From Isurus oxyrinchus (Eukaryota): a stretch of DNA of 64,000 bases. The DNA is taken from the NCBI GenBank assembly GCA_026770705.1, contig JANJGN010000034.1, positions 6,262,001-6,326,000 on the forward strand, written 5' to 3'. This document shows, one piece after another, positions 5,637 to 63,683 of the stretch (its first letter is position 1; every line of letters starts with the position of its first letter). The notes under the pieces are model-generated. The model made no database searches and was not told where the DNA came from. It worked only from the letters and a program-made list of their open reading frames with translations. Position numbers and translations under genes: made by a program.

Positions 5637-5672
5637 AGATGGAGAAAATGAAAGGCAATATCTCGGAATGCG
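5637..5672 (+). CDS. Micro-exon E1 (36 nt) of coiled-coil gene: (E)MEKMKGNISEC
   Basis: catttgctcacAG|agatggagaaaatgaaaggcaatatctcggaatgcg|GTgagc; phase 1-1, open frame; paralogous to E15 (45304). Confidence 0.85.
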
Positions 5673-7116
5673 GTGAGCTATAAAGTTTTAGTTTATTTTC
5701 CTTTACTACCAAAGTAATTATCACGTTAATTGATCTCAGGTTAATATTACCCAGATCCTCCACATCAGCTCTCTCTCCCGCACATTTGAAAGCCTGCTTA
5801 TCGATTCGTGCCGCTTTGAGTTCTGTGTTTATGAAAGTTACCCTGTCATCCATTCTATATTGCTTCCAATCTTATCTCTGCGAGGAGAGTTTGTGCATTC
5901 AAGTGCCACTTTGGACCTCTCAGCACTATCATCCAGGCAGCCAATCCTCGTCCTGAGCAGCCAGGAATTGTTGACTTGGTGGTGAGACCGTCTTCCCTTT
6001 CACGGTGAATATAGAAGATCTCCGGGTGTCAAATGATAACAATTTAGGGGTTACTCTCCTCTTTCTTATGCCAATATTTATCAACCAGCGTCAGGAAATT
6101 GCATTTTTAGTCAGTATTCCATTGGTATGAGAGGCCTCTTACTCTGGTAAACTTGGAATCCTGTTCCCTGGTTTAGAAAGGTGCTAAGTTTGTTGTATGA
6201 AATTTAGTAACAGCCTCAACGCAAAAGATGCAAAATGAATCCAAGCTTTTCTTTTATAGAGGAGCAAGTCAATTCATGTGCAGGTGTCAAACCGCCGGCA
6301 CAATTTTTGGTGACTGATCATTCTTGTCTGTGAGATGTTGAAGAAAGATTGACATTTAAATTACCCTTCTCACTGCTGCGGGATCTAGCAAACCTCTATC
6401 TGACCAATTTGTGCACAGCTTGGTGTTACATGAATGCAATAATGCAAAGATGCTTATTTTGTTGCCTGTTCGAATATTGGAAATGTTGGCTTGGAAACAA
6501 AGGATACCTATTCGAATATAACCCTTATATTGTTGTACGTCCAGCAGTGAAACAGCAGGGAGTTTACTACTTAACAGAGTGCATGCAATTTCAGCAGTGC
6601 AAGATTGCATCTTCAGCTTCCAGTTTACTACAAAGCTTGGAGTGGGACTTTAGCCCACTCTCTGACTGAGAGATGAGGAACCTGCCAACTGAAATATTGC
6701 ATGATCACGCCATCCCTTACAGCATGATGCACACAATCACTGATTCTCGAGTTTTGTAACAGAGAAATGAGCCCAGATCAATTCTTGACGTAGCCCTCAC
6801 CAAAAACATACTGTAATTTATATTAATCAGTAAATTCATGGCGCAATAATTTATTTTGGGTGTGAGTACACGATGTCCATTAACTTAGGAGGCGTCCGTT
6901 TCATGTCCAGCCTGATATTCTTTTCAAATGTAGTTAGAAGGATCGAATATTGAGTTGGGATTATGTTTATGAACCGAAGAGTAGCACCTGTATCATTGCA
7001 CCCAAGATGAACTTTTCATCGATACGTGCCCTTCGCTGTTGTTTTCCCACAATTAGGCTGTTATTGGTATTCTTCATTATGTTACTTATTAATTACTGCA
7101 ATTATGTTGCTCATAG

Positions 7117-7143
7117 ATGAAAAGTTAAAGGTCAAGCAGAAAG
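7117..7143 (+). CDS. Micro-exon E2 (27 nt): DEKLKVKQK
   Basis: gttgctcatAG|atgaaaagttaaaggtcaagcagaaag|GTaaat; paralogous to E16 (46731). Confidence 0.85.
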
Positions 7144-7789
7144 GTAAATAAGTGTGAATGATTTCAGATCACAACAAAAATACAGAATGAGGGAGATGTT
7201 AAAAAAACTGCTTCATAAACATGAGGCCAGAACTGAGAATCTTCACCTATACAGGGGTAAGGAAATTAGGAAATGAAGTGAAAAGACTGCAGATCGACCT
7301 AGAAATACCTTCAAACTGGACAGGCACATACCCGATTTTTTTCTTAAATTCACAACTGATAAAATTTGATAGGAAGGCTGCAGATTGCTGTACAGTGAAA
7401 TGGGATCCAGGCACACAATGGCTAGTATTGCATGACTGTATATATGACTGCGCATAACGAATGGAATAATCCAAAATAAAAGTAGGCCCATACAACCCTT
7501 AGATCCAATTCCAAAATTCAATAATACTGTGACTGACTCTCTTTCTTAATTTCAACATCCAGCTGCTTTTGCAATTTCCCACTTAACTGCAGAGACCCAC
7601 AAAGCGTTCAGTGAAGAAGTTTTATCTAAGCTCTATCATCAGTTACCAAAACAAGTATAGTATTTCACTGACCCTAAGCTCTATATATTAAATAGTTTTA
7701 ATACTGATCAGTAGCTGCATACTAAGCCTGAATACGCTTATTTGGGGATTCAGCTGGAGTGTTCTTTTATTCACGCACAGTCAGTGAAA

Positions 7790-9990
7790 TCCACTGGTTA
7801 CATTTTTACCTCACACAAAGGAATGTGCTTGTGATTATTGGAACCAATCATTTCATGCAAGGCATCATCGAGGAGATTTTCAGCGTGGTGTCCTCGGCCC
7901 AAGCACTTTCAGTTGCTTCATCCACAATATACTACCCAGCATGTGTTCAGGAGAAGGGATTTTGACTGATTATTACAGCATTTTCCCTATTATGTGCGAC
8001 TGCTCAGATACTGAATCAATCCTTGCCACATTCAGAAAGGAATATAAACATTTCCGACTTTGACTGCCAAGTTACAAGTCACATTCATGTTCCACAGGGT
8101 CAGCCAATGGACATCTCTGACAAGCGAGAATGGAATAAGCTAACCATCGAAATCTGTGGAGCTCACCTGGGCTGGCTTATGTGTAACTCCAGATCCGCTG
8201 TAACGTGGCAAGCCATCACTCAGCCATATGGGACTGCTGCAAAACTGCAAATAACACTGAATCCCTCGACTCTGTGGGCTTACAGGTTACTTGAGCAATA
8301 GCCTGGAAATTCCCAGTGACTGAACCTATGGAACATGCATGTTACTTGCAACATACAAGCAAAATTCGGAAGCCTGGCCTTGTACAGGCCACGAATCAGA
8401 CACCATCACTGTTCTATCAGTTGAGCTTGCGGCACCCTGGTATTCTCTTGGGAGGGAATTGCCTGAGAGTGCACAACACGGACTGCATCCCTTCCTCCCC
8501 ACCTCCCCCCAACCCTCAAGAAGGCTTATCACATCAAACGTGGCAAACTTGCTCATTAACATAAGCTGCCTCTACCCGCTGTCCACAAGCTCAGTAGCAC
8601 CAAAGGACGTGGCTGCTCGACCGGGTCTGCAGCAGATTTTTGGGGAACCAACATTGGGGGAAACATTGTTGACTTCATCCTCACCAACCTGTCAGCCACA
8701 GTTACACCTGTACATCTGTCCATGACAGCATGAGTGACAACCCTACAGTTCTTGTCGCGATGAAGCACATTCTTCATGTTGAGTAAACCCTCGTTTTTGT
8801 TTCATGGAAGGATCACGGTGCTAGCGGCCAATTACCCTTGACATCAAGGCTGTATTTGAACGAGCGGGGCATCTTGGAGTTCTAGCAAAATTAAAGTCAA
8901 TAGGAATCATGGGGAAAATATCCGCTCGTTGGAGTCCTATGAAGCACCAAAGAAGATGGTTTTATTTGTTGAAGGTCAATCATTTCAGTTCCAGGACATT
9001 GATTCATTACTTTCTCATGGTAGTGTCCTACGTCCAACCATCTTTAGCTGCTTCATCAATGGGCACTCTTCCAATAGAAGTTCAAAAGTAGGGACGCTCT
9101 CTAGATATAGCACAATGTTGATCAACAGTCGTCACTTCTCAGATGCTGAAGAGACGATGTCCAAATGCAGAAAGACAAGACAATCTCCAGGCTTGTGCTG
9201 ACATGTGGCAAGTAAAATTTGTTTGACACAATTGTTAGCAATGAAGATCTCCAACACTAGAGATTCTAACCATCGTCCCTTGACATTCAATAGCATTACC
9301 ATCACTGAATCCCCAACTATCAACAACTTGTGGTTAACATTGACTAGAAGCTAAACTGGACTAGCTATATGAACACTATAACTACAAGGGCAGATAAGGG
9401 GCTAGAAATCCTATCGCGAGTTACTCACATCCTGATTCCCCAAAGCATTTCCACCATCTAAAAGGTACGAGTCAGGAGTGCGATGGAGTACTGCCCACTT
9501 GCCTCTATGACTGCAGATCCAAAAACACTCAAGAAGCTTCACAACAATCAGGACAAATTGGCACGCTTGTTTGGTGCCCTTTCCAGAAGCATTCACTCTC
9601 TCCAACACGGAGTCACTATGGCAGGATTGTGTACCACCAAGATGATACACAGCAGAAACTCACTAAGGTTCCTTAGGCATAACCTGCCAAACCCAGGATC
9701 ACGACCATATAGAAAGAGAATGACAGAAGATACAGGGAACACCACCACCTGTAAATTGCATTACAAGCTGCTCACCATCCTGACTTGGAAATATATCGTC
9801 GTTCTTTCACTGTAAATTGGTCAAAATGTTGGAACTCCCTCGTTAAGAGCACTGTAGGTGTTGCTACACCACAGGGCCTGAAGTAGTTCATGAATGGATC
9901 TAATCACCACCTTCTACTGGAAAATAAGGGATGGGCTATAAATGCTGGTCTAGCTAGCAATGCACCCATCCCGTTAATGAATAAGGAACA
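7790..9990 (+). mobile_element. Decayed non-LTR retrotransposon (APE endonuclease + RT of the LDIKAAFDRVWH type) with 3' tail
   Basis: GLQQIFGEPTLG (ORF 8339-8725) resembles the APE C-terminal motif; cccttgacatcaaggctgtatttgaacgag resembles LDIKAAFDR; ggtagtgtcctacgtccaacc resembles GSVLGPT; tail gggatgggctataaatgctggtctagc. Confidence 0.75.
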
Positions 9991-10454
9991 CCCATGAAAA
10001 GCAGCATTTCTGATCTTTAGCTCACTCTCCAGCTTAAACATACAATCCATCTTTCCAGGTGCCTTCAAAGTGTGTTACCTCCAGGGCAGCAATTCATCAA
10101 ACATCTTTGGACAACACTTTCTAAACTCGAGGCTTCTACCACTTTAAAAGGCAAGGACATCAAACCAATTGCAATACCAACAACTACCAATTCCTGATTG
10201 CATGACAGTCCTCAGTCCATTTTTCGCCAGCCCTGAAATTACAGGTGCAAACAATCGAGCAACACATTCAGCAATTTGCGCTATTACCTATCTATATGTA
10301 TGATGACCGATCCTCTAGGTTTTGTCGCCCACCTCACTCAAATGGTAGCATTGTCTTCAATGGTCGATATTGCAACACAGTACACCGCTGTCCCGAACTT
10401 ACCTCCACGTTCGAATCCATCCGTAAAATACGATCTCTCACCTCTCTTCTCCAG

Positions 10455-10490
10455 AAATGGATAAACTGAAAAGTGATCTTGAAGATTGTG
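10455..10490 (+). CDS. Micro-exon E3 (36 nt): EMDKLKSDLEDC
   Basis: cctctcttctccAG|aaatggataaactgaaaagtgatcttgaagattgtg|GTaagt; strong splice sites; paralogous to E17 (50978). Confidence 0.9.
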
Positions 10491-11499
10491 GTAAGTAGAA
10501 AAATATTGAAGGCATTTCTCCTTAGCAACCATCAGGGGCAACTCTTCATTTTCTCTGGAAAAAGTAAACTAAATTTATGGTCCCGAACATTTATCATTTG
10601 ACCGAAATTATCTAATTCAGATTTTATGCTCCACTCGAGCCTCCTGCCACAGAAACTCATCAAGGCCTAACATCAGCGTCATCTAAATCCATCAAGTCAT
10701 TTCTTCCTCAAGTGTTTGTCTTATTCTGTCTTGAACTTATGTCTTTTACTCTCATTAAGTATGGCATATTCTTAGCAAATTCTACGTTTTCATCAAGCGC
10801 TACATAAATGAACATATCCTCACTTTGTTTGGTATTTATTGACTAACGTGTGCACATGGTACGTGGATTCAGACTCTCCAACCAATGTTATTTTCTCCCT
10901 AGCTCTTCTTGTTTTGGCTATATTTCTGTGAACTATCTTCGCTTTGAATGATTAAGGAAAACACGTCTGTTTTTCATGTTAACATCATTGTTTTAAGTGA
11001 AAATTAAAGCTATGCAATTAAGTATAAGGTTGACCTAGGGTTTTAAAACAATCAAAACGAATGATCAATCATTATGATGCTCGATTATGTTACTTAATAT
11101 TTCCTTCCATTAGGAAGAACGATGACTTGTAATAGTACAGATTCGATCGGCTTACTTGGCAATGATAGATCCTTACAGAATAAAATTAGACCATACAGCC
11201 CCTCGCATTGAAGTTGTTCTTTGGAATGATCTCCAGTTAACCCACTGCTAAGTACTTTGACGATAATCGCGATCATTAATCCCCATCGATCCTTCAAACA
11301 ATCCACGAGGAACATAGAAAGAAGAGGCAACAATCCATACACTCGAACCTGGAACGTCATTCTATGAAAATTGCTGGCCTAAAAATTAACACGTTATACA
11401 CACCTCTGACAACTTAAACAGGGGCGGGTAGATAAACATTTGCAAGACTATTTTATTAAAAGTGTTGTTTTATTGATCCATTCATCATCTTATTTTTAG

Positions 11500-11526
11500 T
11501 ACTAAAGTTCGCCAACACACAAAAAG
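11500..11526 (+). CDS. Micro-exon E4 (27 nt): VLKFANTQK
   Basis: tcttatttttAG|tactaaagttcgccaacacacaaaaag|GTaata; paralogous to E18 (52042). Confidence 0.82.
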
Positions 11527-12949
11527 GTAATACATGAGTTATTGTACATTTTATTTCCCAATGTGTGTTACTATATGTCTTATTACTCAAACTAATCTAC
11601 ACACCATCGGAATTTGTTGTTGACATTTTTAAAAATGCTGTACGCTGCAAATTTTGCTTATAGGGTGAAATCTTCAGTGTTTACAGGTGTCTAGTGTTTA
11701 TTTCAATTTTCTCCAAATCAAATCCCGAAAAATAAACCATTTATTTGCTACAGGAATGGGGCAGCATCTAGTATTTTCACCTCCTGCTCCTTAAACTGGG
11801 GCACAATTGTTTCCAATCATAGAGGCATTGTACATAGAAAATAAAGTGTGCAACTCGAGATCAGGGCATATGAACCATTTGCGGAATGCCGGCGTTTGTG
11901 CTGATCCAGAGGTTCATCCTAAACCACTTCTTCTCATCCTATCAGCGTATTAGCCTAGGAATTTCAAATATCTTTATTTAGCTTCCCTGTGAAAGCAGAA
12001 ACAGTGTTTATTGTTTAAATAATATTTCCTGAGGTGTGGGAGGAGCTTACTAGGCAGGTTCAGAAGACAAATGAAATTTTACCATATTGTCCCTTGTGCA
12101 GAGACAAACGCAAGCTGGACTTGGTCATGCAGGGAGATTTCCCTCCTGAACGTGCATTCGTGAAGCTTTTTTTCTTTATTTTGCTTATTATTCTTACAAT
12201 TGATGGCAGATGCCATGGTCACCATTATTGCGATTGATTTTCAATTCCTCATCCATAAATGCAGGAGTGGTAAGCTTTGGACCCCTGTCCCTAGAGAATT
12301 TGCCTTGTTCTTTGGTATATTTACACAGAATCATTATCACTGCTGCAGCATGTCCTTGGAAATTAGGGTCATCTGTGCCTTGTGTTAGGTTGATCCACCT
12401 TCTCACCACACTATGGACAAAGAAGTTTTACTTAACATCTGTATTTGATTCATTCGCTAATATCTTGTTTTTTGTCAAAACATTTCAAGCATTATAGACC
12501 CCTTTCAGGTCATCTGTTTCACGAAAAGTGCAGTCACAAAATTTCAGTCTTTCCTTATAGAGGGAAACCTCTCAGATCTGAGTTCTGCCTTTTTCTTCTC
12601 TTCTCCAATGCCTCTGAATCTTTTAAAAAAAACAAATTTAAACAGATTACTCTATCCCTGGGATTCAGATGAGTGGTTGAAAACGAATTGACACAACACC
12701 AGCAAAGAGATTGTTGAGTATTATTGATAAAAATAGATATGTTGAACTAGCTTTTACGGAAGTAATGAGGGTGTTAAACTAAACAAGAGGGGTGAGGGTT
12801 TAAACTTGGGTAAAGGTAGGATCCAAGTAGAAGAGTCAAGCCAGAGGAGCAAAGTAGCAATATGAGAAACGAGGGACAGAAAATGGGAAGGATGGACAGA
12901 CAGAAAAAATCTAAGAATGCGTCAAGAGTCTGAACTAGAGGTTAGAAAT

Positions 12950-15854
12950 GTACCAAAAAGAGTAAACTGAAGGCTGTGTATCTGAATACACATTATACAT
13001 AAAAAAAGTAGTTGAATTGGTGGTCCACATTGAAGTAAAATCATATGATTTCACACGAAATACGGCTGTATGGCTGCAGAACGACAAGAATTTTGCTCTG
13101 AATATTGAGGCGTACATGGCATCGAAGGAGTATAGGAAGCAAGCTAAACGTGGAGGTTTAGCACTGCTAATGAAAGAGGTACTTTGTGCAATAGTTAGAT
13201 GTGACTTTGGTTGAGGAGTTGATGATGTAGAATAAGTTTGGGTGGAGATGAGGAATAATACGGGAAACAAGTCACTAGTTAGAATGATGTATAGGGTTCC
13301 AACCAGTAGCCACAGTGTCGGACAAGTTATTCAATGGGAAATATTCTGCTTGTTATTAAGAGTTGACAATAATCGTGCCTGATTTTAATCTACTTATAAA
13401 CTAGAATAATCGGATTGGCAGTATTAGCCTGGAAGCGGAGTTCTCAGGATGTTTTCGAGATCGTTTCTCAGAACAGCATGGTCTGGAACCAAAGAGGGAG
13501 CAGGTTACATTAGACTTGGTATTGTGCAATGTGACAAAATTAACTAATGACCTCAAAAATGACCTCTTAGGTAGCAATGACCACAGTATCATTGAATTTT
13601 GCATTCAGTTTGAAAGGGAATAGATTGGGTCGAAGTCTATTACGTTAAATTTAGATATGCGCAACTCTGTAGGCATGGAAGCTGAATTAGCTGAAATGGA
13701 TTGGGATGCTATTGCCTAGGCGACATATCAATAGAGAAGCAGTGGCAGGCATATAAGGGACAATTCAGAATATTCAGAATGAGTACATTCGTAACATAAT
13801 GAAAAATACTCAGGGGAGGACCCACCATCATTGGTAAACTAAAGATGTTAAGGAAGGCATCGACCGTAAGGATAAGTGGATATAACACACAGAGATATGG
13901 CAGGGCAGATGATTTGTCAGAATACAAAGAATGGCAGAAACATACTGTAAGGTTAATGAGCAGAAATACTTTCAATATTAGAGGAAGTTAGATAGAAAAG
14001 TAAAAAGCGATTGCAAGATTTTCTGAAAGTATTTAATAAAGGAAAAACATAAGTTATGTGAGTGTTGATCGTCTAGAGATTGACTGAGGTGAGTTACTAA
14101 TACATAATAAGGAAATGACCGAAGCATTGTACTTTTTTAGCTTCTCTTTTCACTACAGTGAATGTCAAAAATATGCCAGTAATAGCTTCAGATCAGGAAA
14201 CGAAACGGAAGGAGGAACGTGGTGAAACTGAAATCGTTCAGTAACCGGCACTGAGAAAGGGCATGGAGCATCGGGCTGTCAAGTCTCCGGTTCCTGATGG
14301 GCAACATCCTAGGGTCTTAAAAGTGTTGGATAATGAGTGGTGGCTAATAATAACTTTTCAAAATTCGATTGATTCTGCAAAGGTTCCATCACGCTGGAAA
14401 GTAGCAAATAAAACCCCTGTAATTCAAAAAGGGAAGGTGGCATGAAACAGGAAACTATCGGGCAATGAGCTTGACGTTGGTCGTGGAGAATTTGGTAGAT
14501 AAGGAGAATATAGCTGACCACTTAGCAAATATAAAAAAAAATCGGGAAGTGTTTACATCCTTTTGAAGAAGGAAAGAATTGTTCATCCAATTTATTAGAG
14601 TTTTTAAAACGAGTAACGTGCACTTATAGATTAGAGGGAACGTGTAGATATAGTGTACTTGGATTTCCAGAATGCATTCAGCAAGGTGCCACATCAAAGG
14701 TTATTGAGAAAAATGGCAGCTCATGGTGTACGGGTAACACATTAGATTGGACAGAAAGTAGGCATGCAGGATGAAAACAGGGGGCATGCAATTATGTTTT
14801 TTTTTGGATTGGCAGGAGGTGGCGAGTGGAGTACCGCAAGGGTCTGTGCCTGATGCTTAACATTTTTTTTTCAATTTATATCAATTATTTAGATGAGGCC
14901 AGCGAAGGAATGCTCAATAGATTTGCAGATAACGCAAAGACAGGCACGGAATTATGTTGCGAAGAGGACATTAGGAGGTTGCAGGCGGAGATAAATTGGT
15001 TGAGTGAGTGGACAAAGATCTAGCCAACGGAGTTTAATGTGGCAAACGGAGTAGCTTTTAAATTTGGAAGGAAGAATAAACAGCTGAGCTTTACTTATAT
15101 AGAGAACGGCTGCATAATATTGAGCTGCAGACAGATCTAAGTGTCTAGCGCATGCGTCACAAAAAAGTAAGCATGCAGGTACAGCAAGTGATTTATAAGG
15201 CTAATGGAATAAAATTCTTTAAAGCGAGAATAAACTAAGAATGTTATGCTACAGTTATAGAGGGCATTGCAGAAACCCCATCGCGAATACTGTGTGCAGT
15301 TTTGGTATCATTATTTAAGGAAGGATGTAAATGCAATGGAGATAGCTCAGAGGAAGCTGTCTAGATTGTTGCCGGGAATGAGCGGCTGCCTTTTAAGGGA
15401 AGGTTGGACAGACTTGGCTTGTTTCCTCTGTAATGTAGAAGAGCGAGGAGTGATTTTATATCGAAGCATACAACACCATCAACGACCTTGAAACGGTAGT
15501 CATGGAAATAATGTTTCCATTTGTGACAAGACAAGGATTGGAGGAACTGATTTAAACTCAAGGCTCCCCTTTTTATACCAGAGAAAACGAGATTTTGTTT
15601 CCTCTGTCAGAGGGTTGTGCGACTTTGGAATTCCCTGCCTCAGAACGCGGTGGGGACACGGTAACATAATATTTTTTTTTAAGGAAGAGTCAGTTAGGTT
15701 ATGTTTTGGCAAGGGGATCAAAGATTATCGGGGGTAGATGGGAGTTCGATATTTGAAAAAAAAAAACAGATCAGCCATAAACTTATTCAATGGCAGAGAG
15801 GCTCGAGGTGCCAAATGGCCCACTCCTCGTCTGCTTTCTTATGTTTCTTATGTT
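12950..15854 (+). mobile_element. Near-complete but decayed CR1 LINE ORF2 plus 3' UTR
   Basis: Endonuclease N-terminus (ORF 13017-13214), gtgtacttggatttccagaatgcattc = VYLDFQNAF, IYINYLD...RFADNAK (14826-15023), EYCVQFWYHYLRKD (15267-15491), ttcttatg-type tail at ~15836-15854; many stops and frameshifts. Confidence 0.9.
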
Positions 15855-15869
15855 TTCAATTTGCACGCA

Positions 15870-50977: not shown

Positions 50978-51013
50978 AACTGGATAAACTGAAAAGTGAT
51001 CTCGAAGATTGTG
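50978..51013 (+). CDS. Micro-exon E17 (36 nt): ELDKLKSDLEDC
   Basis: cctctcttctacAG|aactggataaactgaaaagtgatctcgaagattgtg|GTaagt; paralog of E3. Confidence 0.9.
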
Positions 51014-52041: not shown

Positions 52042-52068
52042 TACTAAAGCTGGCCAACACACAAAAAG
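52042..52068 (+). CDS. Micro-exon E18 (27 nt): VLKLANTQK
   Basis: catcttattttAG|tactaaagctggccaacacacaaaaag|GTaaca; paralog of E4. Confidence 0.82.
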
Positions 52069-53539
52069 GTAACACAGGAGTTATTGTTCATTTTAATTTC
52101 CAATGTTTGTTTCTATATGTCTTATTATTCTAACCAATATACGCACTATTAGAATTTGTTCCTGAAGAAAAAAAATTTGTACACTGCACATTTAACTTAT
52201 AGGGTGAAATCTTCAGTGTTTGCAGGTGGCTGGTGTTTATCAGAATTTGCTCCAAAACAAATCCCTAAAAAGAAACCGTTTCTTTCTTCCAGGGATGGGC
52301 CAGCATTTAGTATATTCACCTCCTGCTCTATAAACTGGGGCACAATTGTCTCCAATCATAGAGGCATTGTCCATAGAAAATAAAGTGTACAGTTCGAGGT
52401 CAGGCGAAACGAACCATCTGGCCAAAGTTGGCATTTGTGCTGATCAAGAGGTTCCTCCGAAAGCACTTTATCTCATCCTATCAGTGTATTGACCTTTTCG
52501 TTTCAAATATGTTTATTTAGCTTTCCCTTGAAAGCAGCAACAGTGTTTATGTTTTAATATTCTTTCAAGAGTTGTGGGAGGAGCTTATTAGACAGGTTCA
52601 GAGGATGGATGACAGTTTACCATGTTGTCCTGAGTCCGGAGACAAATGCAAGTTGGACTTGGTCATGAAGGGAGATTGCCCTCCTGAACGTGCTTTCATG
52701 AAACATTTTTTTTTAATTTTGCTTGTTATTCTTACAATTGATGGCAGATGCCATGGTCAAAATTATTACGAATGGTTTTCAATTTCTCATCCATAAATTA
52801 TTTGAATGCAAATTCCACAAGCAGGAGTGGTAACTTTTGGATCCCTGTTTGCAGATAATTGCAGATAGCTTTGTTCTCTGGTATATTTGCACAGAAGGAT
52901 TATCGCTATTCCAGCATGCCCCTTGAAATTTGGGTCATCTATGCCTTGTGTTGGTGTGCACGACTATCTCAACACACTATGGACACAGAGGATTGACTTA
53001 ACGTCTTTATTTGATTCATTGGCATTTTTTTCTTATTTTTTGTCAAAACAGTTCAAACATTGCAGACCCTTTTCAGGTCATGTTCTCTTTCGCTACAAAT
53101 GCAGTCACAACTTTTTCAGTCTTTTCTTATAGAGGGAAACCTCTCAGATCTGAATTCTGTCTTTTTCTTCCCTTCTCCAATAGCTCTGAATCTTTTAAAA
53201 ACAAATTTATGCAGATTGCTGTATTCCTGGGATTCAAATGAGAGTGGGAAAATGAACTGAGACAACACCAGCAAATAAATTGTTCAGTATTATTGAAAAA
53301 AAATAGATATCTTAAACCAGCTTTTATTGATTTAGTGAGGGCTTTAAACTAAACAGGCGGGGTGAGGGATCAAACTTGGGTAGAGATAGGAATCCAAGGA
53401 GTAGAGTCAAGACAGGGGAACAAAATAGTGATATGAAAAATGAGGGACAGCAAATGGCAGGGAGGGAAAGACAGACAACATCTAACAATGCATCAACATT
53501 CTGGACTAGAAATTGCAGTTGTAACAAAAAAGACTAACC

Positions 53540-56385
53540 TGTAGGCTGTGTATCTGAATGTGCATAGCATTCATAACAAAGTAATTGAATTGATGGTCCA
53601 CATTGAAGTAAACTCATATGATTTGACAGCAAATACGGATATGTGGCTGCAGAACGACAAGAATTGTACTCTCTATATTGAGGGGTACATTACATCGAAG
53701 AACCATAGGAAGCTAGCTAAATGTGGAGAGTTAGGACTGTAAATCAAAGAGTTAATTTGTGCAATATTTCGATGTGACCTTGGTTGAGGAGGTGAGGATG
53801 TAAAATTAGTTTGGGTGGAGATGAGGAATAATATGGGAAACAAGTCACTAGTTAGAATGATCTATAGGAGCGCTACCAGTAGCCACAGTATCAGACAGGT
53901 TCTCAATGGGAAATATTCTGTGCTTGTGGTAAAGAGACGACAATAATCGTGCCTGATTATAATCTACTTATAAACGAGAAAAATCGGATTGCCAGCATTA
54001 GCTTGGATGAGAAGTCCTCAGAATGTTTCCGATTTCGTTTCTCAGGGGAGCATGGTCTGCAAACAAACAGAGAGTAAAAGACATTAGACTTGGTGACGTG
54101 TCATATGACAAAATTAACTAATGACCTCAGAGCAAAGATACTCCTAGGTAGCAATCACAACAATATGACTGAATTTTGCATTCAGTTTGAAAGGGAGTAG
54201 AGTAGGTCAAAGACTAGTATCTTAAACTTAGATATGTGCAACTATGTGGGCATGGAAGTTGAATTAGCTGAAGTATACTGGTATACTATTGGCTAGACGA
54301 TAAATCAAACGAGATGTCGTGGCAGACATAGAAGGTGCAGTTCAGAATATTCAGAATGAGTGCGTTCAAAAAATAAAGAAAAGTACTCAGGGGAGGACCC
54401 TGAAGACCATAAGGAGAGCATCGAACGTAAGGATAAACGCATCTTACTACGCAAAGATATGGCAGCCCAGATGATTTGTCAGAAGATTTGGCAGAAAATT
54501 ACAACAATGATAATCAGGAGAAATATTTGCAGTATTAGCGGAAGCTAATGCAAGTATTTAAAAAAAGGAAAAGCGTAATTTAAGTGAGTGCTGATCTTCT
54601 AGAGAGTAACAGTGGAGAGTAAATAATACATAATAAAGAAATGACTGACGCAATGTCCTTTATTTTGTTTCTCTCTTCACTACAAAGAATGCCAAAAATA
54701 TGCGAGTAATGGCTACAAATCAGGAGCTGAAAAACAGAGTGGAATGTAATGCAACTGAAATCACTTGGTAACCAGCACTGAGTAAAGGAATGGAGCTGAA
54801 GGTTGGCAAGTCTCTAGCTCCTGATGGGCAACATCCTACGGTCTTAAAAGTATTGGCTAATGAGTGGTAGCTAATAATATCTTTTCAAAATTCGCTTGAT
54901 TCTGCAACGGTTCCACCAGGCTGGAAAGTAGGAAATAAAAAACACTCTAATTCAAAAAAGGGAAGGTGGCATAAAACATGAAACTATTGGGCAATGAGCT
55001 TGACGTCGGTCGTGGAGAATTTGGTGGAAACGAACATTAAGGAGGAGACTGCTGGCCACTTACTAAAATCTCAAAGTATTGGGAATTATCAACGTCGTTT
55101 TGTTAAAGGAAAGAATTGTTTAACCAAATTATTAGCGATTTAAAAACAGTAACGTGCACTGTGGATAAAAGGGAACCTATAGACGTACTGTACTTGGATT
55201 TTCAGAATGCATTTGATAAGGTGCCACATCAAAGGTTATTGAGGAAAATGTCAGCTCGTGCAGTAGTGGTAACATGTTAGAGTGGATAGAAGGTTGGCTG
55301 GCTGGATGAAAACAGGGAGCATGTAAAAATGTTTTTTTTTTGCATTGGCAGGAGGTGACGAGTGGAGACCTGCAGGGGGCTGTGCTGAAGCCTTATTTTT
55401 TTTTTTCAATTTACATCAATGATTTAGAAGAGGGGAGCGAAGGAATGGTCAATAAATTTGCAGATAACCCAAAGACAGGCAGGGAATTATGTTGTGAAGA
55501 GGATATGAGGAGGTTGCAGGCCGAGATAGATCGTTTGAGTGAGTGGGCAAAGATCTGGCAAACGGAGTTTAATGTGGCAATAAGTGAAGCTTTTAAATTT
55601 GGAAGGAAGAGCAAACAGATGAGCTTTACGTATCTAGAGAACGGCTGCATAATTTTGAGGTGCAGAGGGATCTAGGTGTTCTAGCGCATACAACACAAAA
55701 AAGTAAGCATGCCGCTACAGCAAGTAATGAATAAGGCTAATGGAATGAAAGATTTTCTTACGATCTTGAACTAGGAATGTTATGCGACAGTTATACAGTG
55801 CATTGTAGATACCCCATGACAAATACCATGTGCAGTTTTGGTATCATTATTTAAAGTTGAGAGTAAATGCATTGGAGATGGCTCAGAGGAAGCTGTCTAG
55901 ATTGATGCCAGGAATGAGCGGGCTGCCATAGAAGGGAAGGTTGCACAGACTTGGCTTGGTTCCACTGTAATCTAGAAGAGCACGGACTGATTTTATATTG
56001 AAACATGCAGGACCCGAACAAACTTGAAACGGTGGGCGTGGAAAGAATGTTCCCCCTTGTGGACAAGTCCAGAAATAGGGGGAACTGATTTAAACTTAAG
56101 GCTCCCCTTTTTAGAACAAAGAAAAGGAAATTTTGTTTTCTCTGTCTAAGGGTTGTGAGACTTTGGAACTCTCTGCCTCAGAAGGCAGTGAAGACGGGGT
56201 AATGTAATATTTCTTTTCCAGGAAGAGGCAGTTAATTTCTTGTTTGGCAAGCAGATCAAAGATTATAGGGGATAGATGTGAATGTGAAATTCGAAACACA
56301 ATCAGATCAGCCATAATCTTATTGAATGGCAGAGAGACTCGAGGTGCCAAATGGCCCACTCCTCTTCCTCTTTCTTATGTTTCTC
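53540..56385 (+). mobile_element. Copy-2 paralog of the decayed CR1 LINE
   Basis: YLNVHSIHNKVIEL (53548-53742); WQEVTSGDLQGAVL...IYINDLEEGSEGMVNKFADNPK (55340-55675). Confidence 0.9.
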
Positions 56386-56419
56386 ATCTCTTTGACTTGC
56401 ACTTATTAGAACACTCCCA

Positions 56420-59400
56420 GAGCACCAACATTAGGGGAAAACAGCAAGTATACTTAATGCGAAGAGAGTGCTGATTGGTTGGGAATTTGCCTTTGGTTAG
56501 TAGAGGTGGCGCCACGCAGAATGCACCAGTGATAATTACTGAAGTTACCCTTCAAGCAGTGCTTGAAAGTTAGACCAGGCAGCTTGAAGCTGAATGGCCA
56601 AATCAGTGCTCAGAAGACTGAGCCTGCTTTAACTTACTTTGCTCAGCTGTAACAAGCCCAGCCTGTGCAGCTATTCTTCCTGCCTGTATGGAACAGGGCC
56701 CAGTGTAATGATATATGTAGTTTCCAGTACCCACAGTGTGAGCCAGAATAACAATCTCAAATCGGTTGTAAGCCTAATTTTTAGAACACTGAGGATTTGT
56801 TTCACAAGTGTCTAATTCTCGATACACATCTAATGTTGGATACTGCACTTGAGTATTGCCAGCATGAGCTACTTTTATATCATCTGTATCTTGGACTTGG
56901 CGAACAATGGCTATCACATGGTGTTTGGTACGATCCGCCAATCTTTGGGGTGTATGGCCTATATACCTATCATCACACTGGCACTGCAATTCGTGTACGA
57001 CATTAGTTTTTTTTTGGTGTGTGACAGACAAAACGTCTGTTTTATTTGGCCGCAGCATTCTGTTAATGGCGAATGCCACACGTGTTTCTAGTGCATAGTC
57101 ACAACACGAATCAGCTAGCTGCAACTGTTGCTCAACTATTTGAGATAACTTGCCATTCCAGGGTTATCTGAGGTCGCCTGTGCACCTTTCATAGTCGATA
57201 GTGACGGCTGGGGCACGTTCTTGAACTTGTGTGATATCAATGGGAAATGATCTCATCAGTTTAGCCATTATCCTGCAGGATGGCACTGATGGTCTCTATT
57301 TTAGTATCAACTAGGGAGCCGTTGGCTCATTTTTCATCTAAAACTTCAAAAAATTTCAATGTTGAATATGAGCGCCCGATGAAGCCCATTAAGAAATGCA
57401 AGATAATGATTACATGCAGACTTCAACATAGCAAACGTATCAACCACATATCGGAAATATGCCAGAGACAGGAAGTCCACCTAAGACAATTTTCCTGCGA
57501 AACACAGCAAAATATTTGCGAGAGCTGGACGTAGAGGGGATTCTATGGCTACTCCACCTAAATTTGCATACAAGCTGCCACTAAAACTGAAATCAACAGG
57601 GCAATTTGCCGTTTCGATATGCCCAATGAATTTTGATTCATGAAATGGTGGAAAGCCATTATGGAGCGGGAGCAGAAATATATGTGGCTTCCATGGATGG
57701 AATATTGGGCAATGGGCTAAAAATGGAAAAATGAGCACAGGGACAAAGCACTGAAATGCATATATAAGTCCTGTTTAGCCTTCTCAAATTTGAAGGAATC
57801 CTTCACCCTTCATGTGGAAAAATTGGTCAAAAACCAGTTGTCACAATTCACTCTACCATTTTGGCAATTCATGTTGCACAGAAAAAGTCATAAGTGACAT
57901 AAGGTGCTTCACTTTTGTTTGCCTTATGCAGCCTAAACATATGGGAATTCAGCGAACCTTGAGGATGAATCCTGTCATATATATGACCTGATGCCTTAAC
58001 TCTCTTAAGACAAATAGAGCAATCATTAGATAAAAGTAAAGAACTGTGGATTTTGGAAATCCAAAACAAAAACAGGAAGATAAATATCTGGAAGAACTCA
58101 TCAGGTCTGGCAGCATCGGTGGAGAAGAGCACAGTTGACTTTTGGAGTCTTTTTGAAGCTTCATGAGGAATCGAAACAGCAACCTTTAGTTTGGCTTGCT
58201 TTCGAGCAAGGCTGTCCGGTCAGGATGAGCAGTGTGTCCAATGGATAGAAATTTGGACCCAGCATTATGAATGGCGTGAATATTGTTAATATGGTCACGT
58301 TGATTATCCCTGTCATGTTTTCTGGTTTACTGATTTATATATCCGGGATGGTCTTAAGGTTGTAAGACATTCACGTTGAATGTGAAAGTCAGGCTGGTAA
58401 TTCGGAAATCCTGCAAAATACACGTCCTCGATCAGCTAGGCTCGCTTTCCAGGGTTCAACGTCTTCAGTGGACACAGTATTCTGGCGGCATATTCTCAGG
58501 ACATAATTTTTGCCGTTTGATTCTCAATAAAGGTCATGAAAATGGAAACCGTGTACTAGAACAACCTCCACGTTTTCTTTGAGTGCATGGCCAGAGAGGC
58601 TGGTTAGCTGTTTAGTGGCATGGTTAGTTGCGTTGCTAAGCCGCAATTCTTAAGTGAGGTTATTGTGCAGACAGTTTCTAACGGGTACTTTTTACAGTGA
58701 GGTAATCAGGTGAAGCCATATAGTGGCACTAATGGATCACATCCTCCCTTTTGTTCACAATGCAACTTGATGTTATAATACAGCGCTGTATATCATGCAA
58801 ACTAATGAACTGGCCTAAGAGCGTCACTTTCGGCCATGAATTGTGCCATCCTCAACTCAGATTACCCTGGAAGGGCAAGTTATCTGAAATAGTTTTAGCA
58901 ATAGGTGTGGATACCTGTTTCACGCCTCTACAATGAAGTAGCAACACGAATAGTATTCGTCACCAGCAGGACGCTGTCATCAATTCAAAAAGACATTCTG
59001 CCTATGAAATAAATGGGTAATGTGATACATGAGTTTTAGTGCCAGTGTGATTCTAGGTATGTAGGCCCTGTGCCCCAAAGACTGGCAGACCATAAAAAGC
59101 AGCATGTCACAGCCACTTTTCACAATGGGAATTGTACAGACATTGCACAACCAGCCCAACCTGCCAAAACACAAAGCACAGTGTCCAACATTAGATGTCA
59201 TTCCACGATCGGGCAGCATTTGTTAAATAATCCTCACTGTACAAAGAATTACACTGACCAGCAATTTCAGTATATCAGCTGGGCGCTGTTGTGTGTACTG
59301 GGAAATACATATATTAATACACACAGGCCTTATTCTTTGCAGACAGAAGGAACATATACAGACATTGCAGCACGTTCAGCCAAACGAAATAAGTTACAGC

Positions 59401-59660
59401 CATTCGCTGACTCATTCTTGAGGGCAATGCCTTGAACAATCAGTGCTAAGCTGCCTGGTGTGAACTTCAAGCTGTGTTTGGCAGTTAACTGTCGGTCTCC
59501 ATCACTGGAGCCTTTTCCATGGCAATGTCTCTACCAATCAGATTTCACTTGCCAAGCAATTACACTTTATCCACAAACAGATAAACTATTGTTTCCTCTT
59601 ATACGGTTATCTTGGAGAACTGTCCAGATGAGTGAAAAAGTAAAACCTTAACATTTCACT
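56420..59660. mobile_element. Copy-2 paralog of the Penelope-like element (minus-strand body, plus-strand inverted 3' arm)
   Basis: GIY-YIG in ORF 56774-57124(-) and ORF 59070-59435(+); RT motif in ORF 57481-57738(-). Confidence 0.85.
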
Positions 59661-61205
59661 TTTTTCATCAATAATCCAGTTCTCTACTAACATGCAACCA
59701 TTTACGGACGTCGTTGCTATTACTATCACCGGGGCAGAATTATGCCTTACGAGATGCAACTGTTGGGCTCTCTTTGCATCAGATACACCAACATTTCCAA
59801 CACTATTCATTCAGCATCTTTAATTAAATTAAGTTTCCCAAGGGACATATACGAGCTTGAAGATTTAAAAAAGAGCAGATATACCAAGATGCAAACAGAC
59901 AGATATTAAGAGAGGCGGCCACAGACAAGATCAAACAGATACGTTTCTAAAAGCATCTACAAGGAAGAAAGAGCGATGGAAAGGCAATGTGTCTTTAGAA
60001 GCGACATCAAACACTTTGGGCCTTAGCATTGAAAGCTGCTGTTTGGTGGAGTGATTAGAGTTGCTGAGGACACCAACGTTAGAGTCGCACCAATATCTTC
60101 GAGAAGTTGGAATGCATGACAGGTATGTGGTATAATGGCGAGTTTTCAAAACAATGTTAAGAAATTATAAATTGAGGTGTTGCTTGAGCTCGTGTAATGT
60201 AGGTATTAGAGCAAATGAATAATAGGTTAAGCGCAATTAAGAGACAATAAGCATATGTGCAACAGAGATTTGGTTGAGCAGAGGGTCATTCTGTTGAAAT
60301 CAGATGTGAGATGAATTTCTGCTCCAACCAGGTAACCTGGAGTTGATCCCCCATGCAGGCAAAACCGGAGAGCAATGAAATAGATTCTACCATATTCAGT
60401 GCACCTGCTCTATCACTTCAATATGGCATGCAATTTTAGTTTAGGTATAGTTAACCAAGTAGCATTATGCGACATACGTATTATGTTGTTAATTTTGACA
60501 TGAGGTTCTCTGCAGGGCAGGCAACAATCAGGTCGGATTGCAACAACCTCTTACTTTAAGATAGCCCCTATAACGTTTCAAAATCTCCCTTGGCACTTCT
60601 CTGGATAATTATCTGTCGACATATTATGTAAACTATATGAGGAGATCGAGGGACTAAACGGCCGAGTGAAAGACCGTCTTTATATGGGTGACAACACTAA
60701 GAGGTGCAAGGTCGACGCAAGTTGTTGATTTAAACAGTCTTGGGTTGTCCTGTGCCATTTGAAGCACAAGTGGGTTCTCATTAGTCTGGACGAAAAAGCG
60801 CAATAACATTCAAACCAATTGAACTCATCAAAACTTAACATCAAGCTGGAGGTACGATATTGTTCGTCTTTCAGTATGAGCCAAGAATAGTTTTTACAGA
60901 TTGATATATTACAGCAGAAATGCCTTAGTTAATTCTGTTTTTTTTTTATCAAGCTTTAAACGGTGTCTCAATGGAACAATCTGCTGAGCACAGCGTTTTT
61001 CACTAAGGAAATGTTTCTCATTCTCATGGACTGGATATCAAGTTCTAAAAGTAGCACTCCATGCATCTGGGTGTGTTCAATCGTATTCGTTCAGACCCAT
61101 CTAGTACTATGAACCATTATGGCTTTACTCCCATTTGAACAATTATTAACTGTTCCAGGTTCACTTCAGATAATAACTGAACGTTTCACTTTTCCTCAAT
61201 TCCAG

Positions 61206-61241
61206 CTATAGAGAAGCTGAAAGAGAACATTAATGATCTAG
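61206..61241 (+). CDS. Micro-exon E19 (36 nt): AIEKLKENINDL
   Basis: ttttcctcaattccAG|ctatagagaagctgaaagagaacattaatgatctag|GTgggt; paralog of E5. Confidence 0.88.
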
Positions 61242-61789
61242 GTGGGTGAAAGTTATTGAGCAATGATCCATTATAAACCTGAAAATCTGTTTCCTTGATT
61301 ACTTTAAAAGCCATAATTTACATGGCCTCCTCGCGCAAAGCAACACATGAGCTGAAAGCATTGTTTCACTTCCTGTTGCTTAAGAATAAAGCAACAGTAT
61401 TGCTCTGACAGAGAAATACCAAATGGATGCAGAGTTAACATGGTTCATTTATGTCATTCTAACTAATATCTGTATATTTTCATCAGTCAATTAACGAAGC
61501 CTTTTTCTGCTTGTTTTGGCGCTAATTGTGTTATTTTCGACGCTGAGAAAAAAAGCTGGTGTGCTTAACCCTCTCCAGAGACATGAGCATGCATCCTAGG
61601 CAAACTGGCTCGCCCCCATTATTTCAGCAGCACTGCATGGTAGATTTAACATTTCCCAGTCTGTCCTCTGAGATGGACACAAAATGATTCACTGAACTCT
61701 TTCTAAGTGAAGCAATGGCGTTCGGCCTCTTAAAATGAACAATAACTTTCCCCCTCAAATAATATCACTAGAAACAGAAATATGGTCAT

Positions 61790-63370
61790 TCACCTCCTTT
61801 CTGTTTACAGGAATATAATCATGATCACCGTGTCCTCGAGATCTCCCGACTTGCCACCCTGTTCCCAAGTGAGGGCTATGACATTGTGCAGCGTTGGCAC
61901 CACCATATTTCACAAATTCAGCAGTGTTCACACCTGCATCAGGAAATTAGTTATTTTTCAACCGTTAAATCGCTTTTTCAATCTCACTACGAGATACAGA
62001 CCGATGGGTTGCTGAGGAATGGAGTTGAGGGCCCTCAAGTCAAAGGCTGACTATCTGTTCAGGAGTCCTTTCAAATGTTTTCTTCAGTGACCACTGATTT
62101 TCTCTCTATCCTTTATGAACTTACCTCTAAGCATGACTCTTAGCAGGGTGCACCCCTGAGTGCCCATGTCATAGATACGCTTGACAACGATGGAGAAAAC
62201 AAGGAATTTGTTGGTGTCCGTGGGCTGTTGGATCTCCCATACCATTTATAATCACAATTGTTCACCATGTCGCTGCCTTTATGCTGTAACACTGCCATCA
62301 AACATATGTAATCCTCCTGCATTTCTCTTATGTTGTTCTCAAGTTTCCTCTCAATGAAACGTTGGAGCATATGCTCGATTAGATCGTGTATCTCATTGCC
62401 ACGTTTGCCAAACCAGTCATGATGTTTCCTGGTCGATAGGGTATCTTCAAGATATTTTATAAGGTCAACAGTAGTTTGAGCAAACAGAACGGGCATCCTT
62501 GTATCTCCCTTTGGCTGCATGTTGACAGATTGAAAGTAATGCGCTGACTGAAAAGACCAACCTTGTTGGGACCTTTGAAGCCTTTGATGTTTATTTTCAT
62601 ACAGTATTGCTTTTGTTGCTCCACTGTTTGGGGGGGGTGGGGTGGGGTGGTTGTTTGGGGTTGCATGCAGACTGGGGTAGCAGACTGGATATTGCAGCGA
62701 TCGGTTGAGTAGTTGTCAGTATCTGACATTGCAGATTTGATATGGACATCTCTGTGAAAGTTGATGTGTAATATTTGGACTATGGGTCCTGCCATGCGGT
62801 CATTCTGCTCGTCTCACTGGTAGCAGAGCGTTGACTATGGCAAGATCGTGTCCCAGGCAATTTTCCAGGAGCTCTCCATTGGGGGTTGCTTTCCTACTCG
62901 CTTGTTGCCTGTCAAAACCTTCCAGACATTTGTGAACTTCCAGATACTGGCATTGAAATATCCGGGGATGATCAGATTGTTGCCTGCTGAGATGCCGGCT
63001 AATGGCTGCTCAAGGTTGTTGAACAATTCGTGTTTTCTTCCTAATTTTTTGCCTCAAGTTTGGGATCATACGCGCCGATGACACAGGCACGCTAATTCTG
63101 TTAGGGTGAGTCTAGAATTCATAAGGCGCACACATATCCCACACAGGTGAGTAAAAAATACGCCAGAGATGTCCATTTTTGTGCGTGAAGCCAACTCGGT
63201 GAAGGCATCTCCATTTGCATAAGGTCGTTCCAGCAAATAATATACTGGACGCCATAATCTTTCAGTCGGCCTTCTCTTGCCTTTTGAGTTTCACTTTTCG
63301 AGTTTGCTGTCGTTTTCAAGGCTTCAGAAGAACATAATTATCGGTAAATCACAATGGATATATTGTAGGC
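61790..63370 (-). mobile_element. Copy-2 paralog of the RTE-clade LINE fragment
   Basis: ORFs 62140-62520(-) and 62835-63026(-) carry RTE-like motifs; colinear with 21230-22800. Confidence 0.78.
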
Positions 63371-63656
63371 GAATATGATATTACCAAATTGAGGCTTGTC
63401 TATCTTGGCCTTTTTTTCATTTCTTTTTTTTTCCCATTCTTACATTCTTCAGTTATTTACTTTCCTTCCTGGATTCCATCTTTCTGTTTACTGTTCTCTC
63501 TTGTTTTCTTTTGTTAATTGCTGGATATTTACCAGCCACCCTTTAAACTTTGACAAGAATTATATGCCAGCCACAAACGTTGCAAATGTCTACACGGTGA
63601 CTGTCATTAATCTCACTGTCCATGTACTCATCCCATTTTGCATATGTTTCAATCAG

Positions 63657-63683
63657 ATCGAAAATTGAGCTATAAGGATACTG
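63657..63683 (+). CDS. Micro-exon E20 (27 nt): DRKLSYKDT
   Basis: atgtttcaatcAG|atcgaaaattgagctataaggatactg|GTaagt; paralog of E6. Confidence 0.85.

Follow-up and report, generated by a model that had tools for sequence, protein, structure and literature searches.

An array of 36- and 27-nt micro-exons leading to a B30.2 exon in the shark Isurus oxyrinchus, a candidate giant coiled-coil gene

A coiled coil built from micro-exons has known analogues in the tails of chicken BG and butyrophilin proteins. Butyrophilin genes carry small heptad exons, followed by a 27-nt Trp-bearing exon and a B30.2 domain encoded in one exon. Enterophilin-1, a mammalian protein far shorter than the product considered here, joins a long leucine-zipper rod to B30.2 and has no Ig domain or membrane anchor, and the schistosome MEGs are small secreted parasite proteins without a folded head. 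According to two sources (PMC4046983, PMC8813856), chicken BG tails comprise 13-36 exons of 21 or 24 nt; these many tiny heptad exons form a coiled coil, expand and contract, and occur in rearranged duplicates, and a soluble form of the tail (zipper protein) controls the actin-myosin interaction. Published work likewise describes butyrophilins as heptads followed by B30.2 (PMC8813856), enterophilin-1 as binding SNX1 and lowering surface EGFR (PMC13749957), and MEG coding sequence as made of very short exons (bioRxiv 10.1101/2023.06.21.545858). Here, we analyzed a window of 64,000 nucleotides from Isurus oxyrinchus (contig JANJGN010000034.1, hereafter C34, positions 6,262,001 to 6,326,000) together with the locus around it, which we call gene A.

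Micro-exons and modular duplication in the window

An earlier note had placed 20 micro-exons on the + strand at window positions 5637-63683, in an unbroken 36/27 alternation. All 20 were recovered, ten of 36 nt (odd-numbered) and ten of 27 nt (even-numbered), and the alternation held throughout. As had been described, every exon is preceded by AG and has G as its last base, and the donor is GT in 19 exons and GC in one. When joined, the exons give 630 nt with no stop in one frame, compared with 25 and 22 stops in the other two, and the spliced product contains neither Pro nor Trp. Heptad power at period 3.5 was 4.2, whereas none of 2000 shuffles exceeded 1.9, which bears out the proposed coiled coil. 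Since every exon is symmetrical (phase 1-1), the frame survives when any of them is duplicated, deleted or skipped; since a 36+27 pair makes exactly three heptads, changes by whole pairs also keep the register.

On surrogate sequence, the control that the earlier note had proposed, 18/20 exons scored in the real window, compared with 0-1 per sequence over 30 Markov surrogates and none on the - strand; the score includes a composition term trained on these same exons and is thus partly circular. When splice-site scores were used without any amino-acid term, 6 candidates each were obtained at 27 and at 36 nt on the + strand of the window; all remaining lengths of 15-60 nt and the - strand averaged 0.3 and never exceeded 3. 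Over 584 kb around the window, the same scan returned 47 candidates of 27 nt and 52 of 36 nt versus a mean of 2.9. Three runs guessed to be RNA (X7, X10, X11) gave no exon-to-exon joint over window positions 38600-46900 among the 15 joints listed of 101; their cover piles up on repeats, and the blank weighs neither way.

The strict alternation is local. Among 184 called 27/36-nt exons at 5.812-6.396 Mb, 125/183 adjacent pairs alternate, a count that leaves out 15-nt exons and missed exons, and 15-nt, 21-nt and consecutive 27-nt exons are present outside the window. The 21-residue (12+9) module, proposed as the building unit, is the commonest arrangement, but not the only one: 9+9, 9+5 and 12+5 combinations and single 7-residue exons occur as well.

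Self-BLAST revealed an intragenic tandem duplication of 40 kb that spans the window, its copies being 81-83% identical. Copy 1 (1..32482, + strand) starts ~2.1 kb before the window and holds 10 exons, and copy 2 (32506..64000, + strand) ends ~9 kb past it and holds 14 exons, that is, 7 modules or 21 heptads. Exons 1 to 6 (5637..5672, 7117..7143, 10455..10490, 11500..11526, 20651..20686 and 23091..23117) are duplicated as exons 15 to 20 (45304..45339, 46731..46757, 50978..51013, 52042..52068, 61206..61241 and 63657..63683), so that only 14 exon types in the window are independent. Exon 7 (27424..27459) has its duplicate 4.1 kb past the window end; exon 8 (30324..30350) carries the GC donor, which is GC in its tandem copy also and GT in a paralog, B; exon 9 (31940..31975) is the final exon of copy 1, and exon 10 (33361..33387) opens copy 2. 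Exons 11 to 14 (38767..38802, 39825..39851, 40125..40160 and 43449..43475) lie in a 5.4-kb segment (38132..43490, + strand) absent from copy 1. This segment carries just four exons, which make up two modules or 42 residues (6 heptads); its loss therefore keeps frame, alternation and register. Duplication and deletion each comprise whole two-exon modules, which points to selection of the heptad register at the level of the exon pair. The 40-kb duplication had gone unmentioned in the earlier note. In run X1, exon 11 shows two substitutions, no stop and unaltered splice sites.

Between copy 1 and copy 2, both splice sites were retained in 10/10 exons (pN 0.081, pS 0.216). The same was true of 14/14 exons between copy 2 and paralog B (pN 0.101, pS 0.218), which has a single 14-exon copy of the window duplication unit at C34:7.29-7.33 Mb. 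Ten 28-kb tandem units offer an internal series in which constraint on micro-exons can be measured. Here, AG was kept in 108/108 cases and GT in 107/108, against an intronic AG/GT background of 65%, and the lone apparent GT loss is an alignment gap with the donor present. Exon identity was 92% against 82%, and no stops or indels were found in the 120 exon copies of these units. The constraint is moderate, with pN/pS of about 0.4-0.46 at few sites, and third codon positions in the tandem units are 90% conserved versus 93% for first and second, a near-equality that partly indicates splicing-level constraint or gene conversion. Together, these comparisons confirm that the window exons are real and conserved. 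A 58-nt segment bounded by AG and GT also recurs in these units; it was considered as an exon and rejected, its length not being a multiple of three and the segment being unremarkable among conserved islands.

Extent of gene A and its B30.2 head

The micro-exon chain runs beyond the window on both sides, on one strand only. In the 806 kb read, 237 micro-exons were found on the + strand versus 1 on the - strand (~2,270 residues seen), and 101 kb of flanking controls contained none. The first micro-exon lies at C34:4868774. The last lies at 6395161, and an open B30.2 exon comes next, at 6.396 Mb. Up to this exon, the chain is continuous over a fully read 584 kb that includes the window; 730 kb of the inferred gene were sampled by 16 x 6 kb. 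Samples had + strand exons in 11/16 cases, - strand exons in 0/16 and no exon call in 5/16. The majority of exons are of 36, 27 or 15 nt, and the size class shifts along the array from 36/27 to 21 nt (at about 5.08-5.30 Mb) and then back to 36/27. Gene A appears to occupy C34 from about 4.848 to 6.396 Mb on the + strand (~1.55 Mb), with the window in its last tenth. The view that the 20 exons are the middle of a large gene with a rod of two-exon modules is thus supported by the extension of the chain on both sides, the exon constraint and the heptad pattern, while the splicing itself we infer.

The layout is best explained as a probably non-coding exon, a 111-nt exon, several hundred phase-1 micro-exons, a 27-nt exon and a single B30.2 exon. 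From the genomic sequence, we infer one mRNA of roughly 375+ exons encoding 3,500-4,300 residues, with all exons spliced together. Human titin has 363 coding exons (PMC3575840). If gene A is one gene, it would rival or top the known vertebrate exon-number record using almost only micro-exons, and would provide a natural test case for the ordered splicing of hundreds of 15-36-nt exons across kilobase introns.

The terminal exon matched Pfam SPRY with an E of 2e-13, passing the cut-off, and no match to Pfam PRY was reported for it. A genome search with PRY found no C34 locus among 150 scored of 313, which is uninformative since the clade does not match PRY. In a quick unrooted tree, the B30.2 fell in a cartilaginous-fish clade of 12/61 rows (SH-aLRT 100); the tree used 59 chosen database rows, mostly single-B30.2 proteins, from about 165, with Ig and RING rows intermixed, and the clade stands apart from all RING-bearing rows tested. 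Its members include proteins of skate (XP_055510696.1), electric ray (XP_069797409.1), catshark (XP_038672308.1), chimaera (XP_042191567.1) and bamboo shark (GCC29436.1). B30.2 identity to the bamboo shark and electric ray proteins is 55% and 51%, respectively. The catshark, electric ray, skate and chimaera models consist of coil plus SPRY only, and RING/B-box was found in 0/7 clade models scanned. Relatives carry automatic names (TRIM39/58/69-like, A33-like or butyrophilin-like) and models of 175-945 aa. Shark annotation has a blind spot for such genes, the relatives being entered as short proteins under names taken from TRIM/butyrophilin domains absent from them.

A 945-aa catshark model, outside the tree, shows 37% identity and has coil plus SPRY, and a 9-residue cassette directly before B30.2 distinguishes two isoforms of the electric ray. 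A protein search with the B30.2 exon gave no longer forms among 832 candidates. A profile search, blind above 2000 aa, gave one long coil-only relative (945 aa) among 81 matches of 491-2000 aa. Besides generic SPRY clusters, the ESM Atlas gave a single lead under 0.9, to a coil-plus-SPRY cluster (1579 aa, 137 members). In a literature search with sparse coverage of subscription papers, we found no paper on a chondrichthyan family combining coiled coil and B30.2.

Proposed product and competing readings

The best explanation, to which we assign a probability of roughly one half (0.52), is one large functional gene of a cartilaginous-fish family, encoding a cytosolic coiled-coil rod without signal peptide and with a B30.2 head. 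The protein would be made without a signal peptide and stay in the cytosol, where its rod would form a parallel coiled-coil dimer about 0.5-0.6 micrometres long. One end of such a dimer would carry both B30.2 domains as neighbours, and the pair may engage a protein ligand with avidity, the rod serving as tether, spacer or cytoskeletal scaffold, much as might be pictured for the soluble chicken BG tail (zipper protein), enterophilin, or a TRIM without RING and B-box. Gain or loss of whole 36+27 pairs would tune rod length. The most far-reaching reading of the locus we hold tentatively, at rather less than an even chance: a single ~1.55-Mb transcription unit with more coding exons than titin, nearly all of 15-36 nt, encoding a half-micrometre Cys-stitched rod plus B30.2 head, in an unstudied cartilaginous-fish family annotated only as short TRIM-like stubs, in which the gain, loss or skipping of exon pairs that fit the heptad register determines how long the rod is.

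The same gene might instead encode a secreted or membrane-anchored protein with its rod outside, a coiled-coil fibre laced with disulfides, its B30.2 head extracellular, which would act like a collectin/fibrinogen-type rod-plus-head in matrix, mucus, egg capsule or innate recognition; this we consider unlikely, though it is the strongest competitor. Cys accounts for 4.8% of the rod, at fixed core positions: it occurs in 66/78 36-nt exons, and 64 of those Cys fall at heptad position d, where disulfides suit dimeric coils. N-glycosylation sequons, however, are not enriched (4 vs 5.5 expected). At the 5' end, the 111-nt exon and the first micro-exons are common to gene A and an upstream paralog, Z. 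The 111-nt exon opens with hydrophobic residues, five only, whose codons differ from Z mostly at third positions, so that this start looks coding upstream of Z's first ATG; yet paralog B, which has lost the 111-nt exon and whose first micro-exon offers an in-frame ATG, is intact in the parts that were read, and a reading of B as a pseudogene is unsupported. A donor with ~400 bp of homologous upstream sequence is common to A, B and Z and is non-coding in the needed frame in Z. The interval from this donor to the 111-nt exon holds no shared exon that combines an ATG with a hydrophobic stretch, and no ATG-signal exon common to A and Z was found. The best-looking candidate (C34:4840063-4840093) was rejected, since it aligns at 71% to an unrelated locus and resembles a LINE fragment, probably of CR1 type. 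As for relatives, the skate protein XP_055510696.1 begins with a hydrophobic, signal-peptide-like stretch, and models with signal or transmembrane segment, coil and B30.2 exist in tarpon and bowfin, though outside the clade. Against this, in the skate and epaulette-shark models alike, the hydrophobic start closes with what appears, judged from the protein text, to be a translated splice acceptor, and other coil-bearing clade models, including the 945-aa catshark model, have no signal peptide.

A good deal less probable is an array of two or more tandem coiled-coil genes, the last of which (with the window) alone has B30.2, or of internal promoters giving shorter proteins. That 730 kb of the array are known from samples only, that exon size class varies along it and that relatives' models are short would all fit. 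However, the unbroken chain through the fully read 584 kb to the B30.2 exon and the strand uniformity of the samples argue for one gene, and no second B30.2 at E<=1e-20 was found among 150 scored of 456 candidates in 4.817-6.396 Mb. Moreover, a probe from the 5' region has two copies only on C34, in A and B, and paralog B connects this region straight to the 21-nt block.

A true butyrophilin/BG-type membrane protein with a giant cytoplasmic tail, its Ig and transmembrane exons missed or lying in a neighbour, seems very improbable. In its favour, the best solved relative of the head is the BTN3A1 B30.2 (E 3e-21; the PDB alignment spans the whole B30.2), one butyrophilin model, from sturgeon, includes a long tail of heptads, BG tails too are made from tiny exons, and the B30.2 exons of A and B are followed, 17-28 kb downstream, by a V-domain exon. 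But this V exon is nectin/PVR-like, 3' of the gene and broken beside A; as a start for paralog B it was also rejected, being 3' of both B30.2 exons, with B's 5' region matching A's. Upstream of the first micro-exon, 0/78 ORFs matched an Ig or RING family, while a control V domain did (E 1e-10); these were + strand ORFs of at least 70 aa (86 listed minus two CA-repeat and six downstream), with one further ORF, crossing the locus border, outside the scan. Nor did the upstream ORFs contain RING/B-box; an Ig motif scan of 4.808-4.966 Mb was negative, and scans found no hydrophobic (transmembrane) exon with strong splice sites, though one with weak sites could escape them. Finally, in the quick tree, with its intermixed Ig and RING rows, none of the 7 Ig-bearing rows falls in the clade of this B30.2. 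By these tests, gene A is neither a butyrophilin nor a TRIM. Least probable of all is a recently dead gene with exons still undecayed, since pN/pS of 0.4-0.46 would allow it but no stop, indel or lost splice site was seen in 120 + 24 exon comparisons at ~18-20% intron divergence, and the B30.2 is open in A, B and Z.

Gene A beside known systems

The single cytosolic-rod gene that we favor shares its B30.2 clade with the chondrichthyan coil-plus-SPRY models, but these have 175-945 aa, whereas gene A has at least 237 micro-exons. Its plan of small heptad exons, a 27-nt Trp-bearing exon and then a one-exon B30.2 is that of butyrophilins; unlike them, it has hundreds of heptads rather than few, and no IgV, IgC2 or transmembrane exon was found. 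The His of the BTN3A1 'NWHY' stretch, which has a role in phosphoantigen binding, aligns to Ser in gene A. As in TRIM proteins of the PRY-SPRY class, a coiled coil precedes B30.2, but no RING/B-box was found and the rod comprises thousands of residues in micro-exons. Enterophilin-1, likened by description alone, also combines rod and B30.2 without Ig domain or anchor. With the schistosome MEGs there is no homology, and their introns reach up to 5 kb, compared with a megabase-sized locus here. Chicken BG combines a V domain with a transmembrane segment and lacks B30.2, whereas gene A has B30.2 and no Ig was found; its unit is mostly the 36+27 pair, and it has ~ten times as many exons.

A micro-exon chain ending in a B30.2 exon

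The earlier note had proposed that 20 micro-exons, alternating strictly between 36 and 27 nt and each ending in G, encode a coiled coil across 58 kb of the window. A first scan of the window for AG-[27 or 36 nt]-GT/GC recovered 18 of these segments, the remaining two, at 7117 and 46731, having weaker pyrimidine tracts. All 20 (window 5637–63683) do alternate, end in G and are phase 1-1, and when joined they form 630 nt that are stop-free in one frame. When splice-site scores alone were used, the plus strand of the window yielded six candidates each at 27 and 36 nt against a mean of 0.3, and 584 kb yielded 47 and 52, respectively, against a mean of 2.9; the sole other length peak in the 584 kb, at 15 nt (23 candidates), turned out to be real exons. 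The heptad coiled coil was borne out as well, with a power of 4.2 at period 3.5 compared to at most 1.9 across 2000 shuffles. In the window translation, residues are hydrophobic in 93% of cases at one heptad position and in 53% at the position three residues on, and 6/8 Cys occupy the same position, in the second core column, of the 12+9-residue, three-heptad module encoded by each 36+27-nt exon pair. Both 9-kb introns hold inverted copies of dispersed repeats (window 15911–16653, 18300–18992, 56511–57206 and 58822–59574; ~67% alike), which are probably old transposon fragments.

The window (C34:6262001–6326000) is also, as anticipated, part of a larger chain, since micro-exons continue outward from it, on the plus strand only, through what we call gene A (~4.848–6.396 Mb of contig C34). 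At the 3′ end, a 27-nt Trp-bearing exon at 6395161 is followed by an open B30.2 exon (Pfam SPRY, E 2e-13), to which the closest solved structure is the BTN3A1 B30.2 (E 3e-21). Upstream of the window lie ten intragenic tandem units of ~28 kb each (C34:5884000–6164000), every pair ~80% identical. Because these units mix modules of 9+9, 9+5, 12+5 and 12+9 residues, the strict 36/27 alternation stands within the window but not as a general rule. Samples spaced 50 kb apart contained 36/27 exons at 5.40–5.76 Mb, 21-nt exons at 5.10–5.30 Mb and 36/27 exons again at 4.95–5.05 Mb. The first micro-exon, at C34:4868774, is preceded by a 111-nt exon at C34:4859457 (phase 1-1).

N terminus, predicted product and exon number

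At the 5′ end of gene A, 78 upstream ORFs and a motif scan of 4.808–4.966 Mb yielded neither an Ig nor a RING exon, and splice and hydrophobicity scans yielded no strong transmembrane exon. A donor at 4848607 and ~400 bp upstream of it are homologous in gene A and its paralogs on C34, B (downstream) and Z (upstream); since Z has stops in the needed frame upstream of this donor, the exon ending there would fit a non-coding first exon. The 111-nt exon carries an ATG, as the second full codon in A and further along in Z, and no ATG-signal exon common to the paralogs was found between the shared donor and the 111-nt exon. Together, the absence of such exons and the ATGs in early exons favor a cytosolic product. 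One attractive signal-peptide exon candidate was rejected, as it sits in a repeat.

Our preferred reading, to which we give a probability of roughly one half (0.52), is that gene A encodes a soluble cytosolic parallel coiled-coil dimer with paired B30.2 heads. At the coiled-coil rise of 0.148 nm per residue, the rod would measure ~0.5–0.6 micrometres and might serve as a tether or scaffold, while the paired heads would bind a putative ligand with avidity. With symmetrical exons, the frame would survive any duplication, deletion or skip, and with exon pairs of three heptads, so would the register. A secreted disulfide-linked rod is less likely. Several features nonetheless count against a cytosolic product: the hydrophobic opening of the 111-nt exon looks coding upstream of Z's ATG, Cys reaches 4.8%, with 64/82 at heptad position d, and a skate model has a hydrophobic start. 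The skate stretch, however, may be a translated splice acceptor, and N-glycosylation sequons show no enrichment.

We infer that the whole chain is one gene, and consider it improbable that the array is several genes in a row. A single exon model called 237 exons on the plus strand versus one on the minus strand across 806 kb of gene A DNA, and none in 101 kb of flanks; the 237 encode ~2,270 residues. The other 730 kb (4.966–5.812 Mb) is represented by 16 samples, straight extrapolation from which adds ~137 exons, giving ~375 in gene A; as the model fails to call some known exons, this figure is probably too low. For comparison, human titin carries 363 (PMC3575840). Only tentatively do we suggest that all exons of gene A are joined in a single mRNA, which would then exceed titin in exon number. 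Very improbable is a butyrophilin with missed exons. The head is of the butyrophilin or TRIM type, on a BG-like rod, and by the features tested gene A falls outside butyrophilins, BG and TRIM.

Duplication and constraint

The window contains a tandem duplication whose copies are 81–83% identical. Copy 2 comprises 14 exons, that is, seven modules or 21 heptads, and copy 1 is missing 5.4 kb that holds exactly four exons; neither the duplication nor the deletion disturbed frame, alternation or register. When the two copies are compared, both splice sites are retained in 10/10 exons, identity is 283/315 in exons against 83.6% for introns, and pN/pS, calculated from few sites, is 0.081/0.216. Across the 28-kb units (12 exon positions, nine copies each), AG is retained in 108/108 cases and GT in 107/108, against 65% for intronic AG/GT, and the lone miss is an alignment gap where the donor is actually present. 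Exon identity across units is 92% versus 82%, with zero stops and zero indels. Because third codon positions (90%) are only slightly less conserved than first and second (93%), some of the constraint may be on splicing or reflect gene conversion. Contigs from sequencing run X1 (organism A) are colinear over most of window 38600–46900, with ~6–7% differing letters; there, among the matches listed, exon 11 (copy 2 only) has two substitutions, is stop-free and keeps both splice sites. The micro-exon chain is real, conserved and of extreme scale, and a dead gene is the least credible reading of the array.

B30.2 relatives on C34, located among 150 scored of 456 candidates, lie at 7.496 Mb (gene B, 92%), 4.8165 Mb (gene Z, 58%) and, on the minus strand, 2.709 Mb (2708644) and 3.474 Mb (3474122; both 44%), the last two and Z (plus strand) being further family members besides A and B. 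Gene B (~6.43–7.50 Mb) is a copy of gene A with a clean deletion matching A's 4850373–5091193 (241 kb). A sequence search gave it one 28-kb unit and one 40-kb unit; its B30.2 is open, and 14/14 of the window unit's exons are retained. After the deletion, its first micro-exon is 21 nt with an in-frame ATG (C34:6459146), possibly a new start, behind a putative non-coding exon. Gene Z, which appears to span ~0.8 Mb (C34:4005537–4817018), has the 111-nt exon and first micro-exons in common with A. Since the 28-kb units, the 40-kb duplication in the window and the megabase-scale duplication behind gene B are similarly diverged (75–85%), these comparisons suggest a single burst of duplication.

Downstream of B30.2, both A (C34:6424335) and B (C34:7513586) have a nectin-2/PVR-like V-domain exon, with a stop and frameshift after A and open after B; five more such V exons cluster at C34:13.07–13.73 Mb. 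On another contig, C21, PRY-bearing exons form a very large cluster at 82.9–118.2 Mb, which holds most of the best 150 of 313 genome PRY matches.

Relatives and known designs

The closest proteins to gene A are all from cartilaginous fish, with models of coil and SPRY only (175–460 aa, except for a single catshark model at 945 aa). A 9-residue block that is homologous to gene A's last micro-exon distinguishes two electric-ray isoforms, and this indirectly supports splicing of such micro-exons. In a quick unrooted tree built from 61 B30.2 domains, ten relatives group with A and Z in one clade (SH-aLRT 100), separate from all Ig- and RING-bearing entries; the tree favors neither a butyrophilin nor a TRIM origin. 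Long coil-plus-B30.2 designs outside the clade include a model from tarpon, whose start is signal-like, and one from bowfin that carries a membrane segment along with glycosylation-rich repeats. A sturgeon butyrophilin, also outside, combines several IgC domains with a heptad tail that is likewise long.

Enterophilin combines a comparable rod with a butyrophilin- or TRIM-type head. SNX1 is reported as a partner of enterophilin (PMC13749957). In working design, the rod would resemble the chicken BG tail, for which two papers describe 13–36 exons of 21 or 24 nt each and a soluble form that controls actin-myosin (PMC4046983, PMC8813856). Butyrophilins are described as a gnathostome domain shuffle (PMC11788884), and the accessible sections of a 2026 survey across jawed vertebrates report varying heptad numbers and describe no gene like gene A (PMC12841164). 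A literature search found no paper on this coiled-coil and B30.2 micro-exon family, which is apparently unstudied. The design itself, heptad micro-exons with B30.2, has known analogues, and gene A is a variation on it.
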